A stretch of DNA of 52,812 bases from a virus (IMGVR_UViG_3300037070_000996:1-52812), one strand, 5' to 3'; shown: positions 1,984-52,686, numbered from the stretch's first letter. Notes: generated by a model not told the origin, from the sequence alone. Numbers and translations are program-made.

Positions 1984-1998
1984 GTTAACTACGTTAAC
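1984..1998. repeat. GTTAAC-N(2-5)-GTTAAC double-palindrome motif, copy 1 of 12
   Basis: Other copies at 2872, 3708, 5336, 6091, 6156, 12245, 31320, 35285, 45674, 48301 and 52639. Confidence 0.9.
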
Positions 1999-2020
1999 AA
2001 AACACTCACTCTCTCAACAA

Positions 2021-2254
2021 TCAAACCCTGCGAATAAGCGAACTCCCCCAACAAAGCCAGACACCCAACAAAGCGACACCAGTCACTACTTCCAGACTGT
2101 TCGCAGAACTAATCAATGAGGGGCCGGCGAAACCTATCAAGAAAAAACCTATAACTGTGAACATCCACACTTCATTTCGATTACGGGGACGCATGCGTGC
2201 AACCTCCTGATACGTGACGTGACGCGAGTTTCTCGAGGCGAATACGGGGGGCAA
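2021..2254 (-). CDS. Small two-TM membrane protein (true start probably the internal MRPRN)
   Basis: Two hydrophobic segments; lies immediately upstream of the SPFH gene. Confidence 0.65.
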   Translation of the reverse strand: MPPVFASRNSRHVTYQEVARMRPRNRNEVWMFTVIGFFLIGFAGPSLISSANSLEVVTGVALLGVWLCWGSSLIRRV

Positions 2255-2291
2255 AAAGACGTGATGTGGTAAACCGAGGTAGACTTAGAGG

Positions 2292-2546
2292 TTAGTCGAT
2301 CGGAAAACCGAAGCTGCGAACCATGACAGGGAAGGGTTCACGAGAGGCAATCCCGTGTGCAGGACACGGTGACGGAGTTTTGGGTGATATTTGACGCATC
2401 AAGAACTGAGCGTCAGCCACACTTATCTGAGTGACAAGTGTGTCGTTTTGAAGTGCGGATTGAACAGCAATACCGAGACGTTCGATTACATCTTCGGTCG
2501 TAGTCTTAGAGCGCATGGTCGGGATATCCCAGTGATGAGTCGACAT
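2292..2546 (-). CDS. Hypothetical protein
   Basis: 84-aa ORF co-oriented with the early genes. Confidence 0.5.
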   Translation of the reverse strand: MSTHHWDIPTMRSKTTTEDVIERLGIAVQSALQNDTLVTQISVADAQFLMRQISPKTPSPCPAHGIASREPFPVMVRSFGFPID

Positions 2547-2701
2547 GCACCATAGCCAATGGTGGGAGCGTTCTGTCGCGGCCGTGATTTATGCGGCTCT
2601 GGTCAGTGTCGCCATTTCGGCTTGTTCTAAGTCACCCACCAAGGCTAATCCCTTGCTTAGTGGGAGATTACGTTTTAAATAGTAACGTAGTACCCCTAAT
2701 C

Positions 2702-2816
2702 GGCGGAGCAGGGGAATCGAACCCCTACAGCACGCACCAGTTATAGTCGGTGACAAGCCAACAAGGCAAGTCCCCTAAATCTGGTGTTTGTGATGCCAGC
2801 TATCCTAGCTCCCGCC
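2702..2816 (-). ncRNA. tRNA-like structured RNA (acceptor-like stem + T-arm + long hairpin)
   Basis: T-arm AGGGG-TTCGATT-CCCCT; closing stem GGCGG(G)AGC/GCTCCGCC; internal CACCAG/CTGGTG helix. Confidence 0.55.
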
Positions 2817-2886
2817 ACCGAGTCCACACGCTCGGCTTGCCTGTATCAAATCTATAATCAATCCTCCATAGGTTAACTAGTTAACA

Positions 2887-3072
2887 TTAGATCCAGATCT
2901 CATGCTCGCGAACCGGGAAGTTCTCGGCTTCACGTAAGGCTTTGTCGATCGCACTTTCCCAAAGTAGCTGAGATGGCGGTGTGCACTCCTCTCTATCAGG
3001 CTGTTTACCACGATTGTACAGCAGTATTGTGCCCAAAATTGCAACAATCCACCACAAACTAGCGCGGGCCAT
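2887..3072 (-). CDS. Small membrane protein
   Basis: N-terminal TM segment (LWWIVAILGTILL); start overlaps the upstream stop. Confidence 0.65.
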   Translation of the reverse strand: MARASLWWIVAILGTILLYNRGKQPDREECTPPSQLLWESAIDKALREAENFPVREHEIWI

Positions 3073-3320
3073 TAGTGCAAATCCTCCATAATCTTTGTCA
3101 GCATCCTAAGATCCAGATCTCGTTTTGCCTGTTCATCTTCGCCGCAATACCGCACGTATTCCTGACAACGTTTACAGGCTGGGCATGTGTGCTCTCGGAA
3201 GGCATCCCAGTTCGCAAAATCCTCTGTTCTGATTGGCCTTGTGTGCGTCCATACGTGCCCGCACTCGCCACATTTGTGACTGTGTGTGTCCGGTCTGGCG
3301 CTGCAAATCGTTATTCGCAT
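3072..3320 (-). CDS. Small zinc-finger protein
   Basis: HKCGECGH...HTCPAC motifs; GGGGAAG RBS-like sequence upstream. Confidence 0.65.
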   Translation of the reverse strand: MRITICSARPDTHSHKCGECGHVWTHTRPIRTEDFANWDAFREHTCPACKRCQEYVRYCGEDEQAKRDLDLRMLTKIMEDLH

Positions 3321-3359
3321 GTTCGCTTCCCCGCTCGTCGGCCGTCGAATTTCTTGTGG

Positions 3360-3470
3360 CTAGAACACAAATACCACTACTAAGACCACGACAAAGATCA
3401 CAACCAATGCTATTAAGCATGCGGTAATGATAGCCGCAGACAGTGTGTTGTAGTCGTGAGGGCGCCTCAT
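3360..3470 (-). CDS. 36-aa single-TM peptide (not in ORF track)
   Basis: MRRPHDYNTLSAAIITACLIALVVIFVVVLVVVFVF*; ATGA overlap with the upstream ORF. Confidence 0.55.
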   Translation of the reverse strand: MRRPHDYNTLSAAIITACLIALVVIFVVVLVVVFVF

Positions 3471-3679
3471 TGCGACACATACGCGTGAGTAGCGTCCGTG
3501 TACTCAGAAATATAAGGCTCAAGGGAGGAGCGCTTGGCAGCTGACTCAAGCGTGATGTCGTCCATGCCTATGGGTGGCAGTCGTGACATCCGCGCCATGT
3601 GTCTGGCGTCGCGTCTCTTGCGTTGTTGACCGCACCACACGGCGCGACCTTGTATCACAGTATAGACTCTATGGTTCAT
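3467..3679 (-). CDS. Hypothetical basic protein
   Basis: MNHRVYTV... within track ORF 3467..3844; AGGGG RBS upstream. Confidence 0.5.
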   Translation of the reverse strand: MNHRVYTVIQGRAVWCGQQRKRRDARHMARMSRLPPIGMDDITLESAAKRSSLEPYISEYTDATHAYVSQ

Positions 3680-3959
3680 CGCAAATACCCCTATATAATC
3701 CGTAATTGTTAACGCAGTTAACATCTCTTGCTGCTTACCGTGTGCAGCGACACCTATCGGGGGGACGCTGGCTAGCGTGCGCCTGATTATGCCGGATGCG
3801 TCGAACCTAACAGCGCGCAGATACTTGGGGGTGCGCTGCCCCATTAGCTACAATTTATATGCCTATCGGTACCGGCTCGCACCGTCACCCTCTCACATTG
3901 GTACATCCTCCGTAGTAGATTGTCGGCCGTGACTGGCTCGAGTCTCCATTTGCAGGGCT

Positions 3960-3988
3960 AGTATGGCACACAGCCACTGTTATGTCAA
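3960..3988 (-). promoter_or_regulatory. Sigma70-type early promoter
   Basis: TTGACA-N17-CATACT with extended -10 TG, directly after a terminator. Confidence 0.7.
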
Positions 3989-3994
3989 ATCGCA

Positions 3995-4031
3995 TAAAAA
4001 AGCCCCCTCAAATGATTAGATCTGAGGGGGT
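3995..4031 (-). terminator. Rho-independent terminator
   Basis: CCCCCTCA/TGAGGGGG stem followed by a T6 run on the minus strand. Confidence 0.7.
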
Positions 4032-4069
4032 AAAACGGCGCCACTATACGGCAGGCGCCGGGGGTACGA

Positions 4070-4234
4070 TTAGTCGGGATCTCGCTTAGTCCAGAACAGT
4101 CTGCACGGCGCACGGTAGCGATCTAGAAGGAACGCTGCTCCTGACAGCATCTGAGCCCTAGCGTGTGCGTGTAGGTGCTCACTAGGCTTCACAGTCGGGC
4201 GCTTTGGCGCCGGTATTGGCTTACGTGCTTTCAT
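4070..4234 (-). CDS. 54-aa basic hypothetical protein (not in ORF track)
   Basis: MKARKPIPAPKRPTVK...KRDPD*; AAGGGG RBS. Confidence 0.5.
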   Translation of the reverse strand: MKARKPIPAPKRPTVKPSEHLHAHARAQMLSGAAFLLDRYRAPCRLFWTKRDPD

Positions 4235-4270
4235 CGAGCTGTTACCCCTTCGTCAGTTTCTTGCGAACAG

Positions 4271-4306
4271 AAAAAAGGCCACGAGAGACATCATCCCCCG
4301 TGGCCC
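4271..4306 (-). terminator. Rho-independent terminator
   Basis: GGCCACG/CGTGGCC stem plus T-run, downstream of the 4329 ORF. Confidence 0.65.
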
Positions 4307-4328
4307 GTGTTGCGTCAAACGCTTGAGA

Positions 4329-5237
4329 TTAGAGAGCCTCACTCGCTGATGCTGCTACCTCCGCATCTCTACCAGCCCGACGCCCACGCGGGCGCTTAGC
4401 AGGCATATACTTGGCAATCTCATTGAGCGCCTCATCGAGCACATCCTTGATATCCTCCGACTGATCCGGGTTAGCTGCCAGTGCAGCGTGCACATCCTTG
4501 ATCAGCCTGTCCATTGTCGGCCCTACCGTCTCGTCCGCCGCGATACCATTGAGATCAAGGATAGTCTCGGAGACTACGGCCGCGTCTGTTGCTCCTGCCT
4601 CTACCTCACCGCCAGCACGGCGACTGATCGTCGGAGTTGCAACCTGACGATAGGCAGTGGCACTCGCAAAATCACGAGGGTCATAGCCCTTATCCATCGA
4701 TCGCAGGTACTGAGACTTGTATGTCCTCCAGCTAGTGGATATGGCCAGATTGAGATTGACCTTCTCGGCTTGTGGGTTGGCCTGCTTGTAGGCTTTCAGT
4801 GCAGCGTCCTCAACGTATGTGCACAGTTTAGCAAACATGCCCGCCCTGTACTGAGGGCGTTCGTCCGAGGCTCCAGCGGCTTCGTAGGCGAGCCGGAACA
4901 TGACATCAGACAGACCAGTCTTCTTTTCGTCCAACTCCTTTTTTACGAGCTGGTATTCCTGGCCGGCCTGCGAAAACTCATTCATCAGCGCCAAGGCGCG
5001 CTTGCGGGTGTCCTTGGGCAGGGTCAGGTCCTGAGCAGGGATCTGATCCAGCTTGACCTGTGCCACCGGCTCAGGCACTGCGCTAGCCTGCTCCTTAGCA
5101 TCCAGTTTCTCGGCATTGGGATCTTCCTTGCCTACCAGTGCCGGGTGCTCTCGCAGCACATCCCGTGCCGTTGCTGCCGTTGTCGGACGAGTAGCCATAG
5201 CCACTGCCTGCCTTACTGCATTTTGATTTCTAGCCAT
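4329..5237 (-). CDS. Large early hypothetical protein (~302 aa, helical, Ala-rich)
   Basis: Long ORF with a GAGG RBS before the ATG at 5237; has its own promoter-like site and terminator. Confidence 0.85.
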   Translation of the reverse strand: MARNQNAVRQAVAMATRPTTAATARDVLREHPALVGKEDPNAEKLDAKEQASAVPEPVAQVKLDQIPAQDLTLPKDTRKRALALMNEFSQAGQEYQLVKKELDEKKTGLSDVMFRLAYEAAGASDERPQYRAGMFAKLCTYVEDAALKAYKQANPQAEKVNLNLAISTSWRTYKSQYLRSMDKGYDPRDFASATAYRQVATPTISRRAGGEVEAGATDAAVVSETILDLNGIAADETVGPTMDRLIKDVHAALAANPDQSEDIKDVLDEALNEIAKYMPAKRPRGRRAGRDAEVAASASEAL

Positions 5238-5296
5238 GATAAATCGCCTCGCGTTACATGTTGATGGATCCAGCCCCATTGCGTCGGGGTGGACGT

Positions 5297-5326
5297 ATCA
5301 GATCACGAGTCACTAGCCGGTGTCAA
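5297..5326 (-). promoter_or_regulatory. Probable sigma70 promoter with a GTTAAC double site just upstream of -35
   Basis: TTGACA-N18-TCTGAT; motif at 5336-5350. Confidence 0.45.
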
Positions 5327-5540
5327 GCCCTGCAAGTTAACGCAGTTAACAAATGCCCGGTGGCTCGACAGGCCCCTGAGGCTTTCGCCTCTTTCGGAAG
5401 CCGAGCTTCCTTATACGTATAAACCCTTACCCTCCCACATCAATTAGTGTGCCAACAGTATGGCCCATTGCAAAACTTAATGCAAATCGTTCGAACCATA
5501 CCCACGTACGTGCACTCATTTATACATGCGCGCCTGCGCC

Positions 5541-5569
5541 CGCGTAGCACAGTCCTGGGCTTGTGTCAA
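5541..5569 (-). promoter_or_regulatory. Possible sigma70 promoter
   Basis: TTGACA-N17-TACGCG with extended TGTG. Confidence 0.4.
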
Positions 5570-5584
5570 CCGGCATTAACCATG

Positions 5585-5607
5585 AAAAAGGGGGCCGAAG
5601 CCCCCTG
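5585..5607 (-). terminator. Rho-independent terminator
   Basis: G-rich/C-rich stem around a TTCG loop, followed by TTTT on the minus strand. Confidence 0.75.
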
Positions 5608-5634
5608 TATCCTCCCAATGCCCGTTAGTTTCTG

Positions 5635-5826
5635 TCACCAAGCTGGCCTTACAGCATACCAAGCCTTGAGGCGCTCTGCTGGTGTCATGATGCCCCTACC
5701 CAGCTCGCAGCGCAGCATGATGTCAGCGTCCCTACGCTCCGGCCTGGCAACCTGCAGTTCGTACTGCTCAGGCTGTGTGTCCGACAGTGCCCACACGTAC
5801 CACAAACACCAAGGATAGGCGTTCAT
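5635..5826 (-). CDS. Hypothetical early protein
   Basis: ATGA overlap with the upstream ORF; followed by a terminator. Confidence 0.6.
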   Translation of the reverse strand: MNAYPWCLWYVWALSDTQPEQYELQVARPERRDADIMLRCELGRGIMTPAERLKAWYAVRPAW

Positions 5827-6020
5827 GGCTTACTGCCCATAGCTCTGTTCGCATCATGCTCAGAGTGCAGTCTGTCCTCGGCTGCCTTCCAGTTGTTGGG
5901 GCGCCTAGCCCTGGCAGCCTGCTCACGAAGGAAGAGCTGTTGAGACCTGCAATCCAGGATACCACGGACAGCAGACACGAACAGCCAGATAGCAATCAGT
6001 AATAGTATGAGTGTCATCAT
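5823..6020 (-). CDS. First early gene, small membrane protein
   Basis: MMTLILLLIAIWLFVSAV TM segment; GAGGT RBS; promoter-like TTGCAA-N18-TACCTT at 6050-6079. Confidence 0.65.
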   Translation of the reverse strand: MMTLILLLIAIWLFVSAVRGILDCRSQQLFLREQAARARRPNNWKAAEDRLHSEHDANRAMGSKP

Positions 6021-6059
6021 AAATACCTCAAGGTTGGACTGGAGGCAGCAAGGTATCAC

Positions 6060-6700
6060 GAAGCCAACAAGGATTGCAATAGCCCGTAGTGTTAACTGGT
6101 TAACAAATCAAGGATAGCGGGTATCTGAGCCAGTACGGCGATTGAGTACAGGAGAGTTAACAAATTGTTAACGATCGCAATGTCTTAGGGTAAGCACGAC
6201 TTGGGCATAGCACAAGGAGGGGTTTATCCCGATTAGGGATAAGCTTACCCGTCATATCCTGACTGCCCATAGGCAGTTTCTTGTTGATGCGTAGCATCCA
6301 CTGCCGGTGTATCGACAGCGAAGCGTTGATACCCGGGTATGAGGGGGGACGGTAGTCCTCCCGTGTTGATGAACTCGACCTAATAAATTTCTACCCGAAA
6401 TTATTAGATCTCGGGATATTTCTTAATATTGAAGAAACAACGAAAATAATTGGAACCTTTAAAGAGGTTCTAATTTTTGAGTTGTCTAATACTACGTATT
6501 TAGTAATATTACGAGTACATGGAAGTTAATAAGTTAGTACGTAAGTGCTAAGTTAGTAACGAGTACGAGTAGTTAGAATAGTTCGATAAGTAACTTGATT
6601 AGTCAAGTAGTGAAGCAGGATAGCGAACGGTACTTTGAGAACTATGATACTTGATAGTTTTTGTAGTTCAGTCCTGAACGACTTTAACTGAGCTATACGT
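6060..6700. other. Divergent non-coding region; probable physical genome end/terminal repeat and late control region
   Basis: Longest ORF-free stretch, with an AT-rich part. The two transcription arms diverge from it. Confidence 0.6.
6441..6571 (+). promoter_or_regulatory. Conserved regulatory block, copy A (late module)
   Basis: CGAAA(A)TAATTG, GTCTAA, TACGAGTACATGGAAG and CGAGTACGAGTA are shared with 45658-45771 on the minus strand. Confidence 0.7.
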
Positions 6701-6709
6701 TTTATTTGT

Positions 6710-6795
6710 GGATTGTTATAGTCGTATGGAGTGACCGCTGGCTGTAAACCAGCAGCCTTTGTGCTCGCTAGGTTCGATTCCTAGACATTCCACCA
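6710..6795 (+). tRNA. tRNA-Tyr(GUA)
   Basis: GGATTGT..GCTGG CTGTAAA CCAGC, long variable arm, CTAGG TTCGATT CCTAG ACATTCC A CCA. Confidence 0.9.
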
Positions 6796-6805
6796 ACCTC
6801 GGCCT

Positions 6806-6833
6806 GTGAGTGCAAGACTCACCCCCGCTACCA
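6806..6833 (+). pseudogene. Orphan tRNA 3' fragment (T-arm + acceptor strand + CCA)
   Basis: GTGAG TGCAAGA CTCAC CCCCGCT A CCA, with no matching 5' half nearby. Confidence 0.45.
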
Positions 6834-6891
6834 CCCTACCGGGTACCACTAGATCTCGTCCCCTACGCCCTCCCAGGAGCTTACAGCACCA

Positions 6892-7227
6892 ATGTCAACA
6901 CTGATTACAGATGCCTCCAGTAGGGCAGTCCAGCTTTTCCACCTATCTGGGGTACGTACTAATGTTACGACTACGGATGGTACGACGACAGCTGCTACAG
7001 CACTGCCGTCAGGGCTACCCGATGTTGGGGCTCTTGTCGAGGTTCGGGCTACAGACACCTGTTACGTAGCATTCGGAGATGCTTCTGTGGATGCTGAGGC
7101 AACCTCGGCTTCCATGCTGTTCCCGGCAGGAGAGAAGGTTCTTCAGCTACCTAGTGGTGTAACCCATTTTGCCGTGATCCGGGCTGGGTCAACCAATATC
7201 TCAGTTCAAGTGGAAAGGTTGGACTAA
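6892..7227 (+). CDS. Small beta-rich virion/fibre-associated protein
   Basis: AGGAG RBS; first gene of the late arm; beta-strand composition. Confidence 0.7.
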   Translation: MSTLITDASSRAVQLFHLSGVRTNVTTTDGTTTAATALPSGLPDVGALVEVRATDTCYVAFGDASVDAEATSASMLFPAGEKVLQLPSGVTHFAVIRAGSTNISVQVERLD

Positions 7228-7231
7228 CGGC

Positions 7232-9235
7232 GTGGCGGGTCGATTAGTTGTAAGATCTGTCCCTAGTTCGCCTCCGGCAGCCTCTGATCTGCAGGCACCC
7301 CAGCAGTTGGCTGGCCTAGACATCACGACACCGGTAGGGCAGATCATCTGCACTATGTCCCCTACGGCGGATATGCACGATGGGGTGACGCCAGGCACGG
7401 GAGTAGGACTCTACACCTTCGATGTTAACGGGGCAACTACGACCTACGCTGCTCCAAGCACAGAGATCATCGTGGCACCGACCCTACACCAGATAGGGGT
7501 CACTGGTGCTACGCTAGTCCAGAACGGTAAAAGGGTGACACTGTCAGCTGCTGGTACCGGGTTTGACAATACCTCAGACCAACTGGCTCTTGCGGGGTGG
7601 CCGCTAACGGGCGACTTCGATGTGTACGTCGATCTGGCTGCTTTCACGGGAGCAGGCTACGAGTACGCAACTGCGGTTCTGATGTGGAGAGACGTCTCTC
7701 TGGCAAACGTAACCACGGTCACTGGAGCAAAGTTTGGCTCAATAGGGTACTGGCGTAGTGCAGACAACATCGGCATTGACTTTAAGGGTCGATCAGTCCT
7801 GGATCAGGTGTACGACATACACCAGTTCGTCACCGGCTCGGGCAGTCCAGGGTGGCTGCATATCCGCCGTAGGTCAAATAATTTCACCTATCGGTACTCA
7901 GCCGATGGTAGCCTGTTTAATACGCTGTATTCGGAGACTCGTACTGCCAGTAGTACCTTGATGGTCGGTGTAGGTGTCAGCGACAACCAAGCCACGCCAG
8001 TGACTATGACCGCTGTGTTCGACGATGTACACTACACGCAGGGTGCGGATGTTGTCCACACGATTAACTCTACAGACCCTACCACCCGAATTATCAAAGT
8101 TAAGGCCAGAGATGCCTCGGCTGCCCTTAACGAGACTGCTTACACAGCCACGCAATCTGCAGTTCCAGGAGTAGCCTCTAGCTCTGTAAAGTTCAGACCT
8201 GGTTTGTGGCCAGAGCCTAACTTCGTATTGTCATACACCAGTGACACAGATTACTGGGACGGTGTGATCCAGCCGTTTATCGATAATGTGGGCACCCTGG
8301 CGGAAGTCACAGGCTTGATGTTCCTGGTAACCATTGGGGTGTTGAGTAAGGACCAGGGTGACTACAGTGAGGGAGAAGCCGTCATAGATGAGCTTGATGC
8401 TCGTATGCGCGCTATCGGCAAGCCGTACCTATTGCACATCTGGGACAGGAAGTTCGGTGGATCACTCCCGACTGTGCCCCAATCTTCCAGTACACGAGCC
8501 TTTGCCGACTGGCACATCAGTGGCAACCATGTGGCCTCAGGTTCGTTTACGCACTATTTAAAGATATGGAATGCTACAGAGATGGGGTACCTCATCGATG
8601 TGTATCGCCATTTTGGCGACTATCTGGACTCTAACGCTTACTGCGAGGGTTTTGAGAACGCCGAATCGGCTATGGACTCTACCGCACCTACCTGGAGTTA
8701 TTCCGGTATGAGGACCCAGACTTACCGATTTATAGATGAAGTTGGTCCTAAATGGCCCACATCTTTGAAGCGGTACAATCTTAATTTTTATGACACCTAC
8801 GATCAAACAGGTATCAACAACGCAGCCAGCTTAGTTTCCTATTTGTACGGCGCGGGATGGGGTATCGGCGGGCCGGACATGTACACCACCACCGGGCCGT
8901 CCATGGGCGAGGGCATTGTGAGGGGTTTGGGGTCTTATTCACCTGGTGTTGGCGAGTATGGGTTCCAGCCAGATTTCGGCAGTATAGACTATCGATCGCT
9001 TATGTCTGTGGCGTACCACATGGAGTACATCCACACCCGATCAAAAGAGGTTGTGTACGCGTACAGCCACGACCAGATAATGAATCACTACCTGCACTGG
9101 TCGGTAGCAACCGCCGGTGAGCTGGATCAGCAGGGCGCCGTTATTACGACAGCCAACGCTTGGCCAGCAGTCTACGCCTACCTTGCCTCTCAGGCTGAAC
9201 CTATAACTAACATTACGAGGCCGGCGAACATATAA
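7232..9235 (+). CDS. Putative receptor-binding/fibre protein: lectin-like beta-sandwich + FN3-like segment + possible glycoside hydrolase-like domain
   Basis: Thr/Gly-rich. LTGDFDV...WLHIRRRSNNFTYRYSADG resembles a ConA/DUF1349-like fold; the aromatic-rich C-terminal domain is alpha/beta-like. Domain calls by eye. Confidence 0.55.
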   Translation: MAGRLVVRSVPSSPPAASDLQAPQQLAGLDITTPVGQIICTMSPTADMHDGVTPGTGVGLYTFDVNGATTTYAAPSTEIIVAPTLHQIGVTGATLVQNGKRVTLSAAGTGFDNTSDQLALAGWPLTGDFDVYVDLAAFTGAGYEYATAVLMWRDVSLANVTTVTGAKFGSIGYWRSADNIGIDFKGRSVLDQVYDIHQFVTGSGSPGWLHIRRRSNNFTYRYSADGSLFNTLYSETRTASSTLMVGVGVSDNQATPVTMTAVFDDVHYTQGADVVHTINSTDPTTRIIKVKARDASAALNETAYTATQSAVPGVASSSVKFRPGLWPEPNFVLSYTSDTDYWDGVIQPFIDNVGTLAEVTGLMFLVTIGVLSKDQGDYSEGEAVIDELDARMRAIGKPYLLHIWDRKFGGSLPTVPQSSSTRAFADWHISGNHVASGSFTHYLKIWNATEMGYLIDVYRHFGDYLDSNAYCEGFENAESAMDSTAPTWSYSGMRTQTYRFIDEVGPKWPTSLKRYNLNFYDTYDQTGINNAASLVSYLYGAGWGIGGPDMYTTTGPSMGEGIVRGLGSYSPGVGEYGFQPDFGSIDYRSLMSVAYHMEYIHTRSKEVVYAYSHDQIMNHYLHWSVATAGELDQQGAVITTANAWPAVYAYLASQAEPITNITRPANI

Positions 9236-9957: not shown

Positions 9958-11223
9958 ATGGCTGATAATGTGGCAATCACACCGGGCGCAGGCGCGTCCA
10001 TTGGTACTGACGATGTTGGTGGCGTCCAGTATCAAGTAGTCAAGTTGGGGGTAGGCGACGATGGCGCCATGGCCCTCGCAGCGTTGACGGCACCCTTGCC
10101 TGTCAGACTGTCAGACGGCACAAGCGCTATCACGACACTCCCCGTAAGTTTAGCCTCAGTGCCCTCCCACGCTGTCACTAATGCTGGCACGTTCGCTGTG
10201 CAAGCGGGATTGAATGCCGGTACAAACAACATCGGCGATGTGGACATTTTGACAATCGCAGCAGGCGACAACAATATCGGTAATGTCGATGTTGAAAGTG
10301 TCGTGGCTGGCACCGGCCCTACAAATTTAGGTAAAGCTGAGGACGCAGCGCACACATCCGGTGACACGGGTGTAATGAGCCTTGCTGTACGAAACGACAG
10401 TGATACAGCTCTTGCTGGGACGACCCTGGATTACGCACCCTTGCAAGTTGACGCCACGGGTTACTTGAAGGTTAACGTTAAAGCAGGTTCATTGGCAGGT
10501 CCTTCTGTCAACGATGACGAGGCGTTTACTGTCGGTGTCACCCCAGTAGCCCCAGTCGGCGGCTTGTACATGGCTTCCCCAGATTCTGTCGATACGGGCG
10601 ACATTGGTGCCTTCGGCATGACTGCCAACAGATCTCTGTTTGTTGCGCTCAGAACGCCTAACGGCGACAGTGCGATGGACGACACAAACGATAGTGTCAA
10701 GGTTACGATTTCTTCGGGCAGTATCGTGGGTATAGCAGACGACGCCGCATTTACGATAGGTGTCAGTGAAGTCCTTCCCGTAGGCTACCTCGCAGATGAT
10801 ACCTCTACGGATAGTGTTAACGAGGGAGATATCGGCGCAGCCCGCATGACCCTAAATCGTAAGATCATATCTCAGCCCTACGAGGGTGAAGGTAACTCCT
10901 GGTCTTATGCGGCACCCGCTGGAGGCTTGGTTAACACGACGGAAGTGACAGCTAAAGCTTCTGCTGGCTCTGGTCTTATCAACTACATAACGAGCATCCA
11001 GGTCACCAACTCACACGCTACCACAGGCACTGAGATTCAAGTTCTAGATGGCACGGCAGGCACAGTGAAGCATCGCGGCTTTGCAGCTGCGTTAGGTGGC
11101 TACGTAGCTACGTTTCCTGTGCCCATCAAGATGACAGCAGCTACGCTCGTCAGCATTAAAGAGGCTACTACGACGGCTACGACTGGCGTTCTAGTTAACC
11201 TTCAAGGCTACGTAGGCGCGTAA
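9958..11223 (+). CDS. Putative fibre/stalk protein with internal repeats
   Basis: MADNVAITPG N-terminus; repeats NNIGDVD/NNIGNVD and DD.AFT.GV....PVG...DSV..GDIGA..MT.NR (x2). Confidence 0.65.
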   Translation: MADNVAITPGAGASIGTDDVGGVQYQVVKLGVGDDGAMALAALTAPLPVRLSDGTSAITTLPVSLASVPSHAVTNAGTFAVQAGLNAGTNNIGDVDILTIAAGDNNIGNVDVESVVAGTGPTNLGKAEDAAHTSGDTGVMSLAVRNDSDTALAGTTLDYAPLQVDATGYLKVNVKAGSLAGPSVNDDEAFTVGVTPVAPVGGLYMASPDSVDTGDIGAFGMTANRSLFVALRTPNGDSAMDDTNDSVKVTISSGSIVGIADDAAFTIGVSEVLPVGYLADDTSTDSVNEGDIGAARMTLNRKIISQPYEGEGNSWSYAAPAGGLVNTTEVTAKASAGSGLINYITSIQVTNSHATTGTEIQVLDGTAGTVKHRGFAAALGGYVATFPVPIKMTAATLVSIKEATTTATTGVLVNLQGYVGA

Positions 11224-11390
11224 TGCTGCTACTGTTATTCCAGCCTTCAAATGGGGAGGGTACACCAGGTGAGGTGACTCTACCAACAGGGCGTAAGCGA
11301 GACGGGCGGCGTTTAATACTTAAACTAGCTCGATTCCAACGCGGTTTCTTTGATCTGGGTGTCTTGTTAAGCTATGTCTTCAGAAAGTGA
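11223..11390 (+). CDS. 55-aa protein MLLLLFQP... (not in ORF track)
   Basis: TAATG coupling to the previous gene; open frame to TGA at 11390. Confidence 0.55.
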   Translation: MLLLLFQPSNGEGTPGEVTLPTGRKRDGRRLILKLARFQRGFFDLGVLLSYVFRK

Positions 11391-12249
11391 ACTTCAGTTA
11401 GTCAAGGACCGGTCAAACCCGGAGCACGCACAAGCTAGGGGTCACAATAAACGAGTAAGAGACAAGTATCCGGACACATGGGCTAAGTCCATAATCACCG
11501 ACAAGGTACTTGCAGAATGGATCATCGAGCGGAAAGGGGACAAATGCCCTTACTGCGAGAAACCGGTAAAAGAGGTCGACCACAAGTTACCTCTTAGCAA
11601 AGGGGGTGATCACGAAATCTCGAATCTCCAGATGCTGTGTATGGACTGCAATAGGTCCAAGCACGACATGACGGACGCGGAGTTCGCCGAGTTCAAGAAG
11701 AACTCACCAAAGATTGGCCTGTCTCTTAGGGACTACGGGATCGAGTACCGGCACTTGAAAGACAAGATGAACAGGTTCAGGACTCGATCCTTGTTCAAAG
11801 AGTTTTGGATAAAGACAGAAGACGACAGTTTGGTGCCTATCTTCGTTTGCAGAGGCGAAGAGGACCGAGACGGGTTGATCTCCCTCAAACGTGTCTACAT
11901 GACGATTGGGGACCCAACCGAGTACAGATTCGCCAAGGCCATATTCGGAGATCATAGGCACTGGCGACACCTTTGTAAGCTTCCTTGGTTCTCTGTGTTC
12001 GCTAAAGAGTGGCGACTGGAACTTAAAGCAAAGCTAAGGTCGGACGCTGTAGCAGCGCTGCTAGAATTGAAGGATGGTAATATTCAGGCCATCAAGGCTT
12101 TGGCCTCCGAGGACTATCCGTTTGCGTCGTATATCGACGGCCACGAGACAAAACGTCGTAGGGCGGGGCGCCCCAACAAAGAGGCTAAGCCTGAGATTGA
12201 TGACGAAGTGTTCGAGGGAGACGCAGCTCGCATGGGGTTGAATGGTTAA
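11374..12249 (+). CDS. terS: HNH endonuclease fused to terminase small subunit
   Basis: CPYC...EVDHKLPLSKGG...NLQMLCMDCNRSK is an HNH signature. The C-terminal DPTEYRFA...HWRHL...WF...WRLELKAK resembles PaP3/LUZ24-type TerS. The gene overlaps the terL start. Confidence 0.75.
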   Translation: MSSESELQLVKDRSNPEHAQARGHNKRVRDKYPDTWAKSIITDKVLAEWIIERKGDKCPYCEKPVKEVDHKLPLSKGGDHEISNLQMLCMDCNRSKHDMTDAEFAEFKKNSPKIGLSLRDYGIEYRHLKDKMNRFRTRSLFKEFWIKTEDDSLVPIFVCRGEEDRDGLISLKRVYMTIGDPTEYRFAKAIFGDHRHWRHLCKLPWFSVFAKEWRLELKAKLRSDAVAALLELKDGNIQAIKALASEDYPFASYIDGHETKRRRAGRPNKEAKPEIDDEVFEGDAARMGLNG

Positions 12250-34991: not shown

Positions 34992-35250
34992 TTGTGGGGG
35001 ATGCGGTTGGCTTCGTCTCGTCTTCGACAGGAGTGTCCATCAGCTTTGTGAGGGTGGTAACCCAATCCTTAACGACGTAAAGTACCGTGTGGCAGTACTC
35101 CTCAACACCCGTTTCCTTATTGTAGATAAGGTAACAAACGCGAGGATTAGGGACAGCACGAGTGGTGGTAGGATACCCGACCTCGACCCGGAAATATTTG
35201 TTTTCATAAACGTTCATATTAGTTCCAGTCCCCTTCCGTCTGCACAGCAC
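34975..35250 (-). CDS. Hypothetical protein
   Basis: In-operon ORF; likely start MNVYE. Confidence 0.6.
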   Translation of the reverse strand: MLCRRKGTGTNMNVYENKYFRVEVGYPTTTRAVPNPRVCYLIYNKETGVEEYCHTVLYVVKDWVTTLTKLMDTPVEDETKPTASPTIDLFN

Positions 35251-45209: not shown

Positions 45210-45584
45210 TTACAAGTTCCTCTCTATCCAGTTAGCGATCTGCTTGAACGAGTAACCAGCCTCGTCGTTCATTCTCACAAGTGTAGCTGTTTCGTGTACG
45301 ATCATATGTCCGTAGTGTGGGTCCTTAACAGGAGGGGACAGGCCAACTTTCCTTGCGAAGTCTTTTCCAAGGATCTTGTTCTTGAAATCATTCTTCCCTG
45401 TCACGGCACGCTTGAGCACACCGAGACAACAATACGCAAGGCCGTGCTTCTGGTTCCAGTCCTTATCAAACGTGGTGCGGAGGTCGCACAGCGTCCCGGT
45501 GCCTTGCTTGTACTCACCAGAGCGTAGAGCTTTCAGCCAGATACGCTTGTACTTAGCAACCATAGGTTTGAATCGTCTTTTCAT
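45210..45584 (-). CDS. Conserved phage hypothetical protein
   Basis: WLKALRSGEYKQG...YCCLGV...ND..GYSFKQIA.WIE; GGAG RBS. Confidence 0.8.
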   Translation of the reverse strand: MKRRFKPMVAKYKRIWLKALRSGEYKQGTGTLCDLRTTFDKDWNQKHGLAYCCLGVLKRAVTGKNDFKNKILGKDFARKVGLSPPVKDPHYGHMIVHETATLVRMNDEAGYSFKQIANWIERNL

Positions 45585-45657: not shown

Positions 45658-45771
45658 TACTCGTACTCGATATGTTAACTAAGTTAACCTATCTTCCATG
45701 TACTCGTACAGTAAAGATACTTTTAGACATCGGAAACCCGGAATAATTCCACAGTTTTTTCAATTATTTCG
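45658..45771 (-). promoter_or_regulatory. Conserved regulatory block, copy B (replication module), with ECF-like GGAATT-N16-GTCTAA
   Basis: Shares four ordered blocks with 6441-6571 and contains a GTTAAC double site. Confidence 0.7.
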
Positions 45772-45787: not shown

Positions 45788-46141
45788 CTACGCTTTAAGC
45801 CTACGGACCTTTTCCTCCTTGTACCAGGCTTTGAACGGTTCGTGGTTCACAGTCCACACCCACACACAAATTACAGCACCTGTCTTAGGGTTCAGTGCGT
45901 TACCTGTCTGAGCTACGGAGCCTAGTAGTGTGTGCACTCTGGTCGCGAATCGGTGTCCGTTAGTGGCGATATCGCCAAGGTTACTCCACATAACGAAGGC
46001 TGGAGGTTCGCCTCGTGCTGGGTGGTAGAAGTGATTGGCAACAGAAAATAGAACATCTTCTATCTCGTCAGCAAGCCTGGAGATTTCAACAACACCGCAA
46101 CTTATGGAAGTGTTACGTATGTCAACTCTTGAGTGATTCAT
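45788..46141 (-). CDS. Hypothetical protein, paralog of 46554..46871
   Basis: TSISCGV...NG....LG......NPKTG..I.VWVW. Confidence 0.75.
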   Translation of the reverse strand: MNHSRVDIRNTSISCGVVEISRLADEIEDVLFSVANHFYHPARGEPPAFVMWSNLGDIATNGHRFATRVHTLLGSVAQTGNALNPKTGAVICVWVWTVNHEPFKAWYKEEKVRRLKA

Positions 46142-48284: not shown

Positions 48285-48315
48285 CTTTGATACCAGCTTT
48301 GTTAACGTAGTTAAC

Positions 48316-49974
48316 CTAATGTACAGCGGAGATTTTACCTCCGAAGTACTCGTTCTGAACCTCCTCCTCTCCGCAGCAAACTGCGCATATTGCTGATTCA
48401 CCTACCCATCTAACCTGGTGCGCCGTCTTAGGGTCGACGAACAGACCACAATGCCCACACCCGTGTCGCGCCGTCTTGTCCACGAAATCTTGTTCTGTGA
48501 TCATCGATCCGCCTGGTCCTTGCACGTATACTGTAGTCTTCGCCTCCTTACTGCGCCACGGATCGACTGTCGCCTCTGCTTCAGCCTGTGCGTGCTCAGA
48601 CACAAGCGTGAGCGTAGGTCTGCTGTCTTCTTTCCTCGGCACCGGTGTTAGAATCCCGCCGTGGTAGCCGGTGAGTTTCTGCCTCGTTATAACAGAGTGC
48701 AGCGCACAAACTAGCACTGTCTTTCCTATCTTCTTGTTAATCTTGATGTTCACGACAATTCCATAAACAGCACTAGCTCTTTGCATCTCCGCCCACTCAG
48801 TCGCGCTCACCCACGGGATTTGTACAGGAATCGTTGGATTATGTGTCCTAGATGCCCTAACGGTCCCGAATTCCCTTTGGTTTGTGTGAAGATCGAAGGC
48901 TTCTGGTTTGAGAAGGATCTGCTGTCCGAGTCGTGCACCGTACTTGGCAACCTTAAGGAAGATTGCTTTAATTTTTCCTTTACTTGTAGGTATACCTGAT
49001 CCTCTTTTAGCGTCTTTGTTGAGTCCGTTGAACTGTGTGATGAGTTCACTAAGTTCTTTGTCTCCAAGACTGAGCCAGTGTTCGGAACCTGATTGGGGTG
49101 CCCCCCTCGGCGCGTCACTCCCGCCAGTTGCCGTACTTTTCGAGGAGGTACCGCTTCCACTCGTCTCCGTGTTCGATATCATCGAGCGGTCCTTCCAATC
49201 CGATAACTGTGAATGGCCCCGATTTTCCCATAGGGCGTCTGTCGATGACGTCTGGTTCTGGGGCCGCATAAAAGGGTGGCGACTGAAGCTCCTTGGATCG
49301 TCCACAGGAAACTTGAGATGGACGTAAGTCGGTACGATTTTAAACAAACCGTCCATTTTGACGTCGTTCCTGTTTAGTACTAGCCACAACATGTCCATCT
49401 CTGATGCCCACCAGACAACGTTGGAGTCCTTGATGAACGCCAACACCATCTCTCGCCCCTCATTACGGGCAATGTTTAGTGTGCGCTCCTTTGAGTCGTA
49501 CCACACCAGTGCGAAGGCACCTTTGAGCTTTTCCAAGCCTGCTTGTGCGCCGTGCTCGGCGATGGCATATGCAGCTGCTTCTGAGTCAACGTCTGGCCCA
49601 AAGCCCTTTGGAGTGATCCCCCAGGCGTTGTTAATGTAGCCGTTGTGAACAAGGGTGATGTGCCTATTGGTAAACGGGTGTGCACGGTGATCTCCTAGAT
49701 TGTTACTAGATGCTGCCCTATTGTGCCCTATGACCATGCGGGCGTCGCTTATGAACGGAGCGAGCGTCTTCTGGTACCCATTAGAAGTCAAGAATTCAGG
49801 CCCCCAAAGACCCCGCTTATAGACAATGAGTTCATCCCGCTTCTCTGGTAGAACGGCCATACCCGTACCATCTGAGCCTCGAAGAACATCAACTATAGTC
49901 AACTCCTCTATCAGCTTCTTGGCTTTCGGCATGTACCTGTAGCCGCCATTTACGAATCCAAAAATCCCACACAT
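48316..49974 (-). CDS. Class II (Ntn) glutamine amidotransferase with long C-terminal extension
   Basis: MCGIFG, RGSDGTG, GHNRAA, AHPF, HNG and VDSE; C-terminal CGHC...CAVC. Confidence 0.92.
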   Translation of the reverse strand: MCGIFGFVNGGYRYMPKAKKLIEELTIVDVLRGSDGTGMAVLPEKRDELIVYKRGLWGPEFLTSNGYQKTLAPFISDARMVIGHNRAASSNNLGDHRAHPFTNRHITLVHNGYINNAWGITPKGFGPDVDSEAAAYAIAEHGAQAGLEKLKGAFALVWYDSKERTLNIARNEGREMVLAFIKDSNVVWWASEMDMLWLVLNRNDVKMDGLFKIVPTYVHLKFPVDDPRSFSRHPFMRPQNQTSSTDALWENRGHSQLSDWKDRSMISNTETSGSGTSSKSTATGGSDAPRGAPQSGSEHWLSLGDKELSELITQFNGLNKDAKRGSGIPTSKGKIKAIFLKVAKYGARLGQQILLKPEAFDLHTNQREFGTVRASRTHNPTIPVQIPWVSATEWAEMQRASAVYGIVVNIKINKKIGKTVLVCALHSVITRQKLTGYHGGILTPVPRKEDSRPTLTLVSEHAQAEAEATVDPWRSKEAKTTVYVQGPGGSMITEQDFVDKTARHGCGHCGLFVDPKTAHQVRWVGESAICAVCCGEEEVQNEYFGGKISAVH

Positions 49975-51101
49975 TATTCGGTTTCTCCATCTACTAAGGG
50001 TATGTCTTGATACGTAGGAGCAGGTCGTGGTGGTGGTGGGTCGAATGCGCGGGCGTTCACGTTCATATTCAGAAAGAATCTCTCAAATGCGACGTCGTGA
50101 ACGCGAGGTTGCGGAATAGCGGCGCCCCCAGCAGGGCTCACCTTCTTAGTCCTTGACTTCTGTGTAGATGCCGGAGGGGCTTCTTTTCCCTTGGCCCACC
50201 TATCGAAAGATGAACCTGGGCCAGGTGCGAATCTAGCGGCAGCGTGTGGGAAGGTAAAGTCTTTGTATGCCAGGTTGAGTACATCCAACATACTTGAGTG
50301 CCCTATGTCCCAAAACTGGTCCTCGAACTGCTCGTACCGCAAAAGGGGCCACAAGTCGCCGAAAACCCTCTCACCGAGAGCCGTAGCGCCGAACTCGTAT
50401 GCAAACCCTATGTACCACTCTGGCCTGATTTGGGCCAGTGAGTTCAACTTCAAACTTAAGCAAACGTTGATCCAGTTGTAAACCCAATCGACATCTGTCG
50501 TGGTCAAGGCTTGCCGGAACTCCACAGAGCCGAACCTAGCCAAAGGATCGAGATTGAGACCAGCGTATTTTTCGTTGCGCAACTGCCCCGCCACGCCTTT
50601 GAGTTTCTCAGATTTGGTGGAGGCTATCTGCGATATCTTCAAGATAGCTCCGTGTGATTTATACCAAGGAAGACAGAACACATTCTCGTCCCTGTCGTTC
50701 CCTACAAATTTGTACAAAGTTGGCTCAAATAGCGCATACAGAACCAACATGTTGACGAGCTGATTCATCTCTAAATCCCGAACATCCACATGAACGTGAA
50801 GCCCGGTGCGAATGGAAGACACATACCCAGCAGTCTTGGCGAAATTACACAAACCAGTAACTGCCGTAATAACGTCTGTGCCGAAGAAGGGGCGACGAAA
50901 TACGAATTCCATCCCTCTATCGTGCAACGAATCGTCTCGTTTACGTTCCCAGTACTGCGGCCACGCTTCTGTAGTGGGCAAACCGGCTATAACTCTCTCG
51001 AACTCAAACTCCAGCCCCAAGGGGCATTTTGGCATTATTAGCCGGTGATCCGGGGTGTTCAAGGCTGATTCCGGGGGGAACCCTAAGTCGTAGCCAATCA
51101 T
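49974..51101 (-). CDS. Putative amidoligase (Amidoligase_2 family)
   Basis: GLEFEFE, DDSL...MEFV, TGLHVHVD, KYAGLN and GSVEFR. Confidence 0.9.
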   Translation of the reverse strand: MIGYDLGFPPESALNTPDHRLIMPKCPLGLEFEFERVIAGLPTTEAWPQYWERKRDDSLHDRGMEFVFRRPFFGTDVITAVTGLCNFAKTAGYVSSIRTGLHVHVDVRDLEMNQLVNMLVLYALFEPTLYKFVGNDRDENVFCLPWYKSHGAILKISQIASTKSEKLKGVAGQLRNEKYAGLNLDPLARFGSVEFRQALTTTDVDWVYNWINVCLSLKLNSLAQIRPEWYIGFAYEFGATALGERVFGDLWPLLRYEQFEDQFWDIGHSSMLDVLNLAYKDFTFPHAAARFAPGPGSSFDRWAKGKEAPPASTQKSRTKKVSPAGGAAIPQPRVHDVAFERFFLNMNVNARAFDPPPPRPAPTYQDIPLVDGETE

Positions 51102-51754
51102 AGAATGAACTCTATCTCTTTGTTAAGGGTGCGGTGGATGGTGGTGCGATACTCAGCAGCCCATTTGTGCAACTGAATGGTATTGGCCCTAAGAATAACA
51201 CCAATAGATTTGCTCTTGTACGTAAGACTTGGAAACTCGGAGTCACCCAGATACGCGCCGAAGTTGTAGCTCAGGGCGTAAGCGGGAAACTTCGGCGTCG
51301 TGCTTAGCAGGTCAGTCTGCGCTTCGTCCCAAGGTGTATGACCTTGTCTAACTGCATTGTGCACGAAGGGTGCGTGATACATGAGATCGGTCGTGAATGT
51401 TGGATAGTTCCTTTTTGTTAAATACCACCCATTAAATGATAAGTACCCAATCCTTCTTGGATCAAAACCTCGTCCTCCGTTACGAGTAGTCTGGTAATAC
51501 AAATACAACAATTCGTTTTTGTAAACTATAGTGCCTAGGCGAGGTATGCCGAACAGAACAGTGTTCTTTATCATCTCCCAGGTCATGATCACGTTGCGTG
51601 TAAGTCTCCCACTCGTGTACATAGCCATGGTAGCCACTTCGTGTTCGTAACGACCGCCAACCATGTACAGAATGTCGGGATCGACTCGACTTTTGACGAA
51701 ATGCTCAGTGTAGTACTGGATAAAATCGTCAAAGGACTCGACGTCAGTACGCAT
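51098..51754 (-). CDS. Hypothetical protein inside the ligase cluster
   Basis: 218-aa ORF coupled between the two ligases. Confidence 0.8.
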   Translation of the reverse strand: MRTDVESFDDFIQYYTEHFVKSRVDPDILYMVGGRYEHEVATMAMYTSGRLTRNVIMTWEMIKNTVLFGIPRLGTIVYKNELLYLYYQTTRNGGRGFDPRRIGYLSFNGWYLTKRNYPTFTTDLMYHAPFVHNAVRQGHTPWDEAQTDLLSTTPKFPAYALSYNFGAYLGDSEFPSLTYKSKSIGVILRANTIQLHKWAAEYRTTIHRTLNKEIEFIL

Positions 51755-51756
51755 AA

Positions 51757-52629
51757 TTAAAAGTCACCCCCAAGTTGCATTGTGTCACTGATGTGCCTCA
51801 CGAGACTGTTGGCAAGGACTTCGTCTTCGTTTGTTATGGCGGCAGCCACGTCGGCCCAAGGTATGTGGGTATAGGACCTATGTAAAGTCTCTCGAACCCA
51901 CTCGTCGCTGTATGTGCGTTTTGCGAAGTCTATAATATTGTTGGAAATGTTCTGTCTTACGTTGTCTGCCCCAAATAGCCAGAAATTGCTGAGTGTTCGA
52001 TACTCCAGACCATAAGGCTTCGGGCGATACAAACCTGGTAGGCCGTAAATCTTGCGTCGACCACCCTGTTTGTCGTACTTAACGCATGGAAGCCCAATCA
52101 GGACATCCATGTACTTGGCAAAGATGTCGGCGGGGACCGCCTCTTTGTTGTACCCGACGTGAATGTGCCCCCCTGCGTACCGCATAGCGCCAAGGTCAGA
52201 AGCACTGAACGGTTTGCGCTTGTACATGTCTTCTGGAAGCGGGCTGTCTCCAGGGGCGCCGTACGCCCAATGATCTGGAAGACACCCGATCTCTTTCGCT
52301 TTGGGGTGCTCAAGCTGCTCAGAAGTCAACTTGATAGCATTGATACCTGTTGCAATCTCCAGCTTGAGTGGATTGAGAATGTATCTTTGTAAATTCTCCA
52401 TAGCCGAACCGATGCCTTCGGTGAAGCGCGTATATCCCATGAATGCTGGGATATTGAATTCAAGAGCTGCCCCGTCCTCCTGATACGTGAAGCCTGGCGC
52501 ACCCAGCAATATCGGCAGCGGCGCCTTCTTCGTTCCTCCCACAAGACCAAAAATGGGCAGGATTGTTTGCCCCCGCTTTACGAACATCTCAGGGTCTGCG
52601 CCAATTGTAGCATTCATAGATAACTCCAA
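51757..52629 (-). CDS. phiEco32-like COOH-NH2 ligase type 2
   Basis: IGADPEMF, GGTK..P, QEDGAALEFN, GC.PD, RYAGGHIHVG, RR..YG.PG.YR.KPYGLEYRTLSNFW. Confidence 0.93.
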   Translation of the reverse strand: MELSMNATIGADPEMFVKRGQTILPIFGLVGGTKKAPLPILLGAPGFTYQEDGAALEFNIPAFMGYTRFTEGIGSAMENLQRYILNPLKLEIATGINAIKLTSEQLEHPKAKEIGCLPDHWAYGAPGDSPLPEDMYKRKPFSASDLGAMRYAGGHIHVGYNKEAVPADIFAKYMDVLIGLPCVKYDKQGGRRKIYGLPGLYRPKPYGLEYRTLSNFWLFGADNVRQNISNNIIDFAKRTYSDEWVRETLHRSYTHIPWADVAAAITNEDEVLANSLVRHISDTMQLGGDF

Positions 52630-52686
52630 GTTCTAAATGTTAACTAGTTAACCTATCTCGAGATTACGCGGGAGAGGGGTGTTTGT

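Follow-up and report, generated by a model that had tools for sequence, protein, structure and literature searches.

The virus record IMGVR_UViG_3300037070_000996, a stretch of 52,812 nucleotides (nt) that we refer to in its full length as the window, carries 12 exact copies of a short paired element, GTTAAC-N(2–5)-GTTAAC, in which two copies of one hexamer are separated by a brief spacer. We found that this element is real, phage-specific, shared across phage lineages, invariant in sequence, free in its orientation, and selected at the nucleotide level. An earlier note, made from the sequence of the window alone, had proposed a genome-wide system of cis-acting elements, and this proposal is strongly supported by the recurrence of the element in other phage lineages and by the selection on its nucleotides. 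As to function, we tentatively favor an operator in duplex DNA through which a putative dimeric factor would act on the early and replication genes, a reading that we regard as possible rather than probable; the recognition of duplex DNA by a protein and the effect on transcription are the parts of it that we infer.

The paired GTTAAC element and its copies in the window

A pattern search for GTTAAC-N(0–12)-GTTAAC returned exactly 12 matches, with the positions and spacers that the earlier note had listed (1984, 2872, 3708, 5336, 6091, 6156, 12245, 31320, 35285, 45674, 48301, and 52639). The spacer is 2 nt long in four copies, 3 nt in seven, and 5 nt in one. For the 2–3 nt class, a model of independent, identically distributed bases reproduced the note's chance expectation of about 0.006 pairs (0.006 expected, 11 observed). 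The enrichment held against Markov backgrounds of order 1, 3, and 5, which gave 0.010, 0.010, and 0.067 expected pairs against the 11 observed, with a simulated maximum of 2 in 300 runs; the order-5 model matches the count of the GTTAAC hexamer itself. Dinucleotide shuffling gave 0.04 expected pairs, and random placement of 37 hexamers gave 0.05 pairs of the 2–3 nt class. The window contains 37 GTTAAC hexamers in total, and the 13 that are solitary compare with about 11.6–13.6 expected. Because solitary hexamers occur at chance level, the enrichment is confined to the pairs. No variant with one mismatch and a spacer of 1–4 nt was found in the window.

Each GTTAAC arm is itself palindromic, and so a pair is a direct repeat and an inverted repeat at once. 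The flanks give the copies an orientation, as the earlier note had correctly described: the core is preceded by G and followed by A on the + strand at 1984, 2872, 12245, and 31320, and on the − strand at 35285, 45674, 48301, and 52639. Between copies, perfect inverted repeats of 20–21 nt are formed by 1982–2001 with 48298–48317 and by 2868–2888 with 52636–52656.

The window is the whole IMG/VR virus record, a circular assembly of about 52,686 bp from a podovirus. Positions 2–127 and 52687–52812 are identical over 126 bases (100% identity), and a single − strand open reading frame (ORF) spans the join, from 316 down to 52648; the identical ends and the ORF across the join indicate that the assembly is circular and that the ends of the record are arbitrary. 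The genes are arranged in two arms:

Leftward arm, from about 6059 via the record ends to 32277, − strand: the early/replication arm, with small early ORFs, an SPFH protein, an amidoligase/amidotransferase/GGCT cluster, primase, DnaB-type helicase, family A DNA polymerase, exonuclease, and endonuclease I.
Rightward arm, 6892–32158, + strand: an HNH-containing ORF, TerL, portal, capsid, a 1648-aa protein, and lysozyme.

That the left end of the window is transcribed leftward is confirmed by three intrinsic terminators there on the − strand (in a scan of 1–7300). Ten of the 12 copies belong to the leftward arm or the divergent control region. All 12 are listed here:

1984–1998, spacer TAC: on the − strand it precedes CTTT-GGAG-N9-ATG of the SPFH/Band_7 gene (1966 to 1079), with the Shine-Dalgarno (SD) sequence 4 nt away.
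2872–2885, spacer TA: a perfect 14-bp palindrome, 1 nt past the TAA of an ORF at 2887–3072 (−) and followed by CTAT-GGAGG.
3708–3722, spacer GCA: 28 nt 5′ of the ATG at 3679 of a 70-aa ORF (−), or within a longer ORF at 3467–3844.
5336–5350, spacer GCA: 9 nt upstream of TTGACA (−), preceding a 316-aa early ORF at 4329–5279.
6091–6104, spacer TG: part of the divergent control region, with TTGCAA (−) 11 nt downstream of it, before the first leftward ORF.
6156–6172, spacer AAATT (5 nt): 65 nt further upstream than the copy at 6091, the only copy with an 11-bp period, and of the form TTAAC-N5-GTTAAC quoted for CtrA.
12245–12259, spacer GTA: contains the TAA of the HNH-containing ORF (11374–12249) and forms codons 2–6 of TerL, which starts MVNVVN.
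31320–31333, spacer GA: contains the TAA of an ORF at 31100–31324, 5 nt before the ATG of the lysozyme gene (31339–31764).
35285–35299, spacer TAC: encodes VNVVN in frame, close to the 3′ end of a 195-aa ORF at 35219–35806 (−).
45674–45688, spacer TAA: in a gap of about 200 nt between ORFs at 45788–46141 and 45210–45584 (−), 89 nt upstream of the ATG.
48301–48315, spacer GTA: abuts the TAG of a glutamine amidotransferase gene (48316–49974), 16 nt before the ATG of the GGCT gene.
52639–52652, spacer TA: contains the TAA of the ORF that crosses the join, followed by GGAG and, 21 nt downstream, the ATG of a COOH-NH2 ligase type 2 gene.

The gene contexts given in the earlier note (the start of the terL gene and the positions before the lysozyme, GGCT, COOH-NH2 ligase, and SPFH genes) proved accurate, as did its statement that two coding copies are kept as VNVVN, in TerL and in the 195-aa ORF. 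Its placing of two copies about 10 nt upstream of −35 boxes also held, with distances of 9 and 11 nt for the copies at 5336 and 6091. The −10 elements there are poor, and neither site was listed by a simple promoter scan.

Occurrence in other phages and selection on the nucleotide sequence

When IMG/VR was scanned with the flanked motif, most matches were single and attributable to chance, and in addition there were contigs with 4–7 copies per approximately 10 kb. A scan for the motif followed by C-N3-GGAG returned 31 stretches, the majority from multi-copy phage contigs. In bacterial genomes totaling 596 billion bases, the motif with an SD sequence gave 20 scattered single matches, and this pattern was multi-copy in none of these 20 loci. 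The scattered single matches in bacteria and the predominance of multi-copy contigs in IMG/VR indicate that the element is phage-specific. Counts in whole phage records, each of which had no match to a reversed-pattern control, were as follows:

G005 and G009: 8 copies each.
G006, G007, G010, and G011: 7 copies each.
G008 and G017: 6 copies each.
G025: 4 copies.
G012: 3 copies.
G013: 3 copies, and a further 6 with a 4-nt spacer.

Two sets of apparent multi-copy matches were rejected. In Shewanella waksmanii, one locus of the six pairs is a 9-bp tandem repeat and the remainder are single intragenic matches. The pairs in G020–G024, L043, and L108 belong to local tandem iteron arrays (for example, beside a P4-alpha-like primase) and not to the dispersed element. 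At two further loci (L124, 11731–11853, and L048, 12333–12453), two inverted arrays of GTTAAC-containing 9-bp repeats, about 100 bp apart, flank an A+T-rich stretch downstream of a primase-like ORF of 913–936 aa; these look like replication iterons of a P4-like element. G013 also contains, at 17046–17077 (L189), three tandem GTTAAC hexamers with 4-nt spacers (TATG). The G005 record (L126–L128) of 52,491 bp repeats itself at an offset of 38,928 bp, so that the true genome is about 38.9 kb and 13.6 kb is assembly redundancy.

Two groups of related podovirus-type genomes of about 39 kb, which we call groups A and B, carry the element with spacers CAA/TTG or CGA/TCG (group A) and GCC/GGC/GAC (group B). 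They encode a T7-like primase-helicase, a polymerase, and ribonucleotide reductase; none of their ORFs exceeds 730 aa, which indicates that they have no T7- or N4-type RNA polymerase. G025 is a distinct A+T-rich genome of 56 kb with terminal repeats, and all four of its copies are intergenic. By BLASTP and profile hidden Markov model comparison, the window and groups A and B have in common an exonuclease, a metallophosphoesterase, a DUF3310 protein, a membrane protein, and a weak capsid match; the window shares nothing with G025 and only a weak TerL match with G012. All eight copies in G005 lie within or at the ends of the early/replication arm, and in G005, G008, and G017 a copy follows an intrinsic terminator at a convergent junction. 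On a crude ORF call, junctions hold 28 of 50 copies, though they make up only about 10–15% of the sequence.

The earlier note had looked to related phages for conservation of the element, and here the outcome was mixed: the element is present in unrelated lineages, as described above, but absent from the closer relatives. It was found in none of four records of portal relatives in IMG/VR (best 44% identical), in none of five named relatives (HTVC115P, ICBM2, ICP2, MW202697, and MEP401), and in none of 80 metagenome loci encoding TerL relatives (759 kb). Nor did these 80 loci contain a substitute dispersed inverted repeat with a 6-bp stem in three or more copies; the two matches to that pattern were simple tandem repeats. 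The TerL of the window is at most 59% identical to that of named phages, mostly Zobellviridae, and its best named relatives include phages of Rhodobacteraceae. Thus, the distribution of the element does not track structural-gene phylogeny.

Across 10 genomes or contigs, exact copies outnumbered one-mismatch variants by 63 to 6. A copy within the primase-helicase gene bears most directly on what is being conserved, as it occupies the same place in seven genomes of groups A and B. All 12 bases of the element are invariant there, and third codon positions do not vary at five of the six sites inside the element; of those in the flanks, 6 of 40 are invariant. Motif-negative relatives, with a primase-helicase that is 59% identical, have nearly the same peptide (GLNxLTYG) in other codons. 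An invariant element among variable synonymous flanks shows that selection at the primase-helicase copy acts at the nucleotide level, on the nucleic acid itself. Motif-positive and motif-negative relatives differ at the site by about four point changes, which points to origin or loss in place. G005 and G008 are about 78% identical, and at some of their junctions one genome carries the element while the other has an unrelated stretch that is about as long; at one junction the whole unit of element, C-N3, and GGAGG is present in G008 and replaced in G005. A junction in L035 has the element where G005 carries about 210 extra bases.

Operator, RNA signal, and other readings of the element

If the element is an operator, a DNA-binding protein would recognize each palindromic GTTAAC as a symmetric dimer, and the spacing of 8–11 bp between the two hexamers would allow cooperative, high-occupancy binding. 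The copies are concentrated in the leftward early/replication arm, next to the −35 boxes of its first promoters, at junctions between genes, and within a few genes; in groups A and B they are also found where the two arms converge. Their occupancy would modulate transcription of the early/replication arm by host RNA polymerase, with the bound factor serving as a repressor, a roadblock, or an insulator; a rapidly evolving early protein of the phage and a factor of the host are both candidates for the binder. Recognition of the duplex is favored by the invariant palindromic hexamers, the free orientation, the weakness of the predicted RNA hairpin, the 2-nt spacers, and the promoter-proximal and post-terminator copies. 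The group A copies that stand near promoters lie 2–6 nt upstream of −35-like hexamers, as judged by reading the sequences. The spacer can flip between genomes, being TTG in G005 and CAA in G008 at a homologous site, and within one, G009 (group B) having GCC four times and GGC four times; a flipping spacer that is free in sequence would fit orientation-independent recognition. Among the functions that the earlier note had put forward, an operator gave the best fit, although no binder was found.

Several observations weigh against an operator. The length of the spacer varies from 2 to 5 nt by lineage and is mixed inside the window and inside G013 (4 nt in six pairs and 3 nt in three), which is hard to reconcile with a rigid tetramer but would be expected of a hairpin loop. 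GGAG or GAGG stands 2–6 nt downstream of 30 of 78 copies from 13 genomes or contigs, most often at 4 nt (17 of the 30), although many of the 78 are homologous sites in related genomes and hence non-independent; this fixed coupling to the SD sequence is unexplained by a DNA operator. The distance from a copy to the −35 hexamer varies. Profile searches found no early protein common to the window, groups A and B, G025, and G012. In agreement with the earlier note, which had seen no obvious helix-turn-helix (HTH) regulator, Pfam scans of 57 window ORFs and of 30 proteins (E ≤ 0.01, or E ≤ 0.001 for one subset of the 30) matched no DNA-binding domain, HTH and ribbon-helix-helix included, and no repressor or integrase family, though divergent proteins could escape such scans.

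Groups A and B do encode a small HTH protein, and a copy of the element precedes its start by 35 nt in group A and occupies its codons 4–8 in the group B contig L036. This protein is not tied to the element, however: four loci encoding relatives that are 54–57% identical lack both a copy and a substitute repeat. The protein also has no homologue in the window, G025, or G012. Because it is absent from these genomes and is not tied to the element, a host factor as the binder is a serious possibility. The presence of the identical 12 bases in lineages with little gene overlap, together with their absence from close structural relatives, narrows the reader to a host factor or a small mobile early gene.

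An alternative that we consider unlikely, yet with more in its favor than those that follow, is that the element acts as RNA, with GUUAAC-N-GUUAAC forming a stem-loop 4 nt upstream of the SD sequence that would govern how the downstream cistron is processed, stabilized, or translated, perhaps by way of a protein that recognizes the stem. RNA processing had been among the options of the earlier note, and the SD coupling just described, with its 4-nt mode, agrees with it. So do the replacement of the whole unit with its GGAGG at one junction between G008 and G005, the stop codons of upstream genes within or adjoining the element, the tolerance of loops of 2–5 nt, and, in groups A and B, flanking bases that often lengthen the stem (G...C). 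The start-associated sequences (SAS) of Cluster K mycobacteriophages and their extended form (ESAS) provide a precedent (Pope et al., 2011; PMC3203893). In the window, however, no copy has flanking bases that lengthen the stem (they are G...A or T...C in 8 of 11 copies), and a 2-nt spacer, as in four window copies, cannot close a 6-bp stem, which weakens an RNA hairpin. Folding energies ranged from −1.2 to −3.5 kcal/mol and most z-scores from 0 to −1.8, so that these marginal hairpins are mostly no better than those of shuffled sequence. None of 47 two-mismatch variants kept the pairing of the arms, no G-U variants were seen, and there was thus no covariation. A stem-loop also leaves the palindromic stem unexplained: a palindromic arm (1 of 64 hexamers by chance) is not needed by a hairpin and is needed by a dimer on duplex DNA, which favors the latter. 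The stem would consist of four A-T and two G-C pairs, no copy is among the terminators listed in the scan of 1–7300, and the element lacks the makeup of an intrinsic terminator, which has a G+C-rich stem and then a U tract. Translation starts account for fewer than half of the copies. Those without an SD sequence lie inside genes, at promoters, or after a terminator, and several (in the primase-helicase ORF, upstream of −35 boxes, and after a terminator) are far from any start. The orientation of the spacer is likewise mixed relative to transcription.

The involvement of a host regulator can be framed more specifically. The pairs might be half-sites of a host response regulator of the OmpR/PhoB type, such as CtrA of Alphaproteobacteria, adopted independently in compressed form as a means of tying early expression to that regulator or of titrating it; this we find improbable. 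Equally improbable in our estimate is the broader proposition that unrelated lineages converged on a signal for a conserved host regulator of the CtrA or ArcA type, which would tie the early program to the cell-cycle or redox state of the host or soak up the regulator. The hexamer is shared: the CtrA site published for Dinoroseobacter and Rhodobacter is TTAAC-N5-GTTAAC (PMC7232146), equivalent to TTAA-N7-TTAAC, and a Sinorhizobium motif, GTTAACC-N5-TTWAMCAT, overlaps that of CtrA (PMC4914127). As the earlier note had observed, this spacing is present in the copy at 6156 alone (1 of 12), which has exactly the published form; the other 11 window copies and all copies with 3-nt spacers elsewhere have a period of 8–9 bp, not 11 bp. 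CtrA boxes are in promoters, whereas GTTAAC copies are also at stop/SD junctions and inside genes.

Two features of the phages agree with a reader of this kind, namely the Rhodobacteraceae phages among the best named TerL relatives of the window and the lack of a phage protein common to the lineages. A third comes from group B, in which a protein of about 90–105 aa has a GcrA-like N-terminal HTH match (L183, 8956–9273, + strand; homologues in L036, L132, and L136); the match, at E 0.0038, is below the Pfam threshold and hints at alphaproteobacterial hosts. On the other side, one of the 57 window ORFs matches the T7 gp5.9 RecBCD inhibitor family (E 4e-8), which would fit a host with RecBCD rather than AddAB, and the named Lentibacter and Pelagibacter phages lack the element (0 of the 5 named records).

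It is more doubtful still that the element is a recombination linker or a mobile boundary cassette, promoting the exchange of modules between co-infecting phages or being copied from junction to junction. An identical 15-mer in lineages with few common genes, sites at gene junctions and at the boundary between the primase and helicase domains, block replacement rather than gradual decay at conserved junctions, the junction at which L035 has the element and G005 about 210 extra bases, and the 20–21 nt perfect inverted pairs of the window would all be expected of such a cassette. Most boundaries of insertions and deletions among G005, G008, and L035 nevertheless fall away from the copies, 15 bp is a short length for homologous exchange, selection acting on evolvability alone would not hold 12 of 12 bases invariant within a gene, and the primase-helicase site is only about four point changes from its motif-negative relatives.

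Least probable of all, by a small step, is a site-specific nuclease target (for virion nicks or the initiation of replication or recombination) or a decoy for GTTAAC-specific restriction: GTTAAC is the site of HpaI and HincII, the exact sequence requirement resembles that of an enzyme, and the window encodes HNH and GIY-YIG nucleases, but these are not linked to the element, no nuclease is common to the lineages, a variable spacer is unusual for an enzyme site, and solitary GTTAAC, neither depleted nor enriched, gives no sign of restriction pressure and no support to the decoy proposed in the earlier note.

Three further candidates were discarded. Hairpin promoters of the N4 type require a giant virion RNA polymerase, and none was found in G005, in which the largest ORF is 730 aa and no polymerase family was matched (the 1648-aa protein of the window was outside this check). 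For repetitive extragenic palindromic elements mobilized by their associated tyrosine transposases, no Y1 (IS200/IS605-like) transposase family was matched by Pfam, and the motif with an SD sequence was not multi-copy in the 20 bacterial loci. A likeness to the 3′ region of 16S rRNA and to the trp operator was dropped, as it hinges on one spacer variant.

Among described repeats, the closest analogue of the GTTAAC element is the 17-bp repeat of Cluster O mycobacteriophages, 5′-TGTTCGG-NNN-CCGAACA, which has 34 exact sites and three with one mismatch in Corndog; its function is given as unknown and a dimeric DNA-binding protein is predicted (Cresawn et al., 2015; PMC4351075). The two resemble each other in having inverted arms around a 3-bp center (7 of the 12 window copies have a 3-nt spacer), invariant arms with few near-misses (63 exact to 6 for GTTAAC), a central trinucleotide that stands either way round without relation to transcription, a mix of intergenic, near-start, and intragenic sites that is denser at the non-structural end, and phages that are not obviously temperate. 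We regard it as an analogue and not as a member of the same family. The arm sequence differs, and the GTTAAC phages are podovirus-type, with T7-like replication genes, GGAG ribosome sites, and, by inference, other hosts. The GTTAAC arms are each palindromic, their spacer is 2–5 nt, and many copies stand 4 nt upstream of an SD sequence. The Cluster O repeat is described there for one cluster, whereas the GTTAAC element occurs in lineages with almost no genes in common.

The Cluster K sequences, the function of which was described as still unverified in 2025 (PMC12699233), are likewise short repeats, with an inverted repeat just upstream of an SD unit, confined to the non-structural half of the genome and absent from the host genome. 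They are linked to translation starts, a link that the GTTAAC element shows in part, through the 30 of 78 copies with an SD sequence 2–6 nt downstream. The SAS, however, is a 13-bp asymmetric sequence that contains the SD sequence and has one orientation (PMC3203893), and the ESAS arms are imperfect 17-mers with spacers of 4–13 bp, in contrast to the exact 6-mers of GTTAAC. The stoperators of Cluster A, at which a bound protein is thought to block elongating RNA polymerase (PMC9283540; PMC4351075), likewise consist of a single short exact site repeated at many places in the genome, for the most part in short gaps between genes. They are described as asymmetric, oriented with transcription, and bound by a known monomeric immunity repressor in temperate phages, whereas the GTTAAC core has dyad symmetry and mixed orientation: the orientation defined by the flanks agrees with gene direction in six window copies and opposes it in at least two. 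No repressor or integrase family was found by Pfam in the scanned window ORFs. We found no description of the GTTAAC element in open-access papers (without their supplements).

Genome context and significance of the element

No RNA polymerase family was detected in the window, and the Pfam scans matched no transposase family. In a phage collection, there was no match to 25 kb of the window by megablast or to its 667-aa ORF by tblastn. The other features of the window that we recorded are as follows:

342–415, − strand: tRNA-His(GTG), the sole Rfam match at the gathering score.
6200–6700, between the arms: about 600 bases, A+T-rich, with no convincing ORF.
6710–6795, + strand, divergent control region: tRNA-Tyr(GTA), below the Rfam gathering score.
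7232–9235, + strand: 667-aa ORF at the head of the late arm.
9958–11223, + strand: 421-aa ORF at the head of the late arm.
36173–36697, − strand: ORF with a GIY-YIG domain, directly downstream of the family A DNA polymerase gene and overlapping its end.

Words resembling TACTCGTA and GTACTAAC are repeated within 6200–6700, which may be an origin or control region, and a related word, CTTCCATGTACTCGTA, is found beside the copy at 45674. The 667- and 421-aa ORFs matched no Pfam or PHROG family; PDB matches to the former were weak and WD-repeat-like, and searches of a protein atlas and of PDB sequences gave nothing usable for these two or for the 316-aa ORF. The GIY-YIG ORF looks like a free-standing homing endonuclease. 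Elsewhere, a 78-aa ORF in a phage contig (L016, 3401–3637, − strand) resembles, by eye, a CsrA-type RNA-binding regulator.

Dispersed exact repeats with dyad symmetry are known from a few mycobacteriophage clusters, and the GTTAAC element extends this kind of repeat to podovirus-type phages. In its primase-helicase copy, the synonymous sites show selection on the DNA or RNA itself, apart from the encoded peptide. If the pairs are read by a host master regulator, they would represent a new way for lytic phages to hijack it. The binder, if found, would reveal how T7-like phages that lack an RNA polymerase of their own schedule their early and replication genes, and it would provide a compact, portable operator for synthetic phage work.

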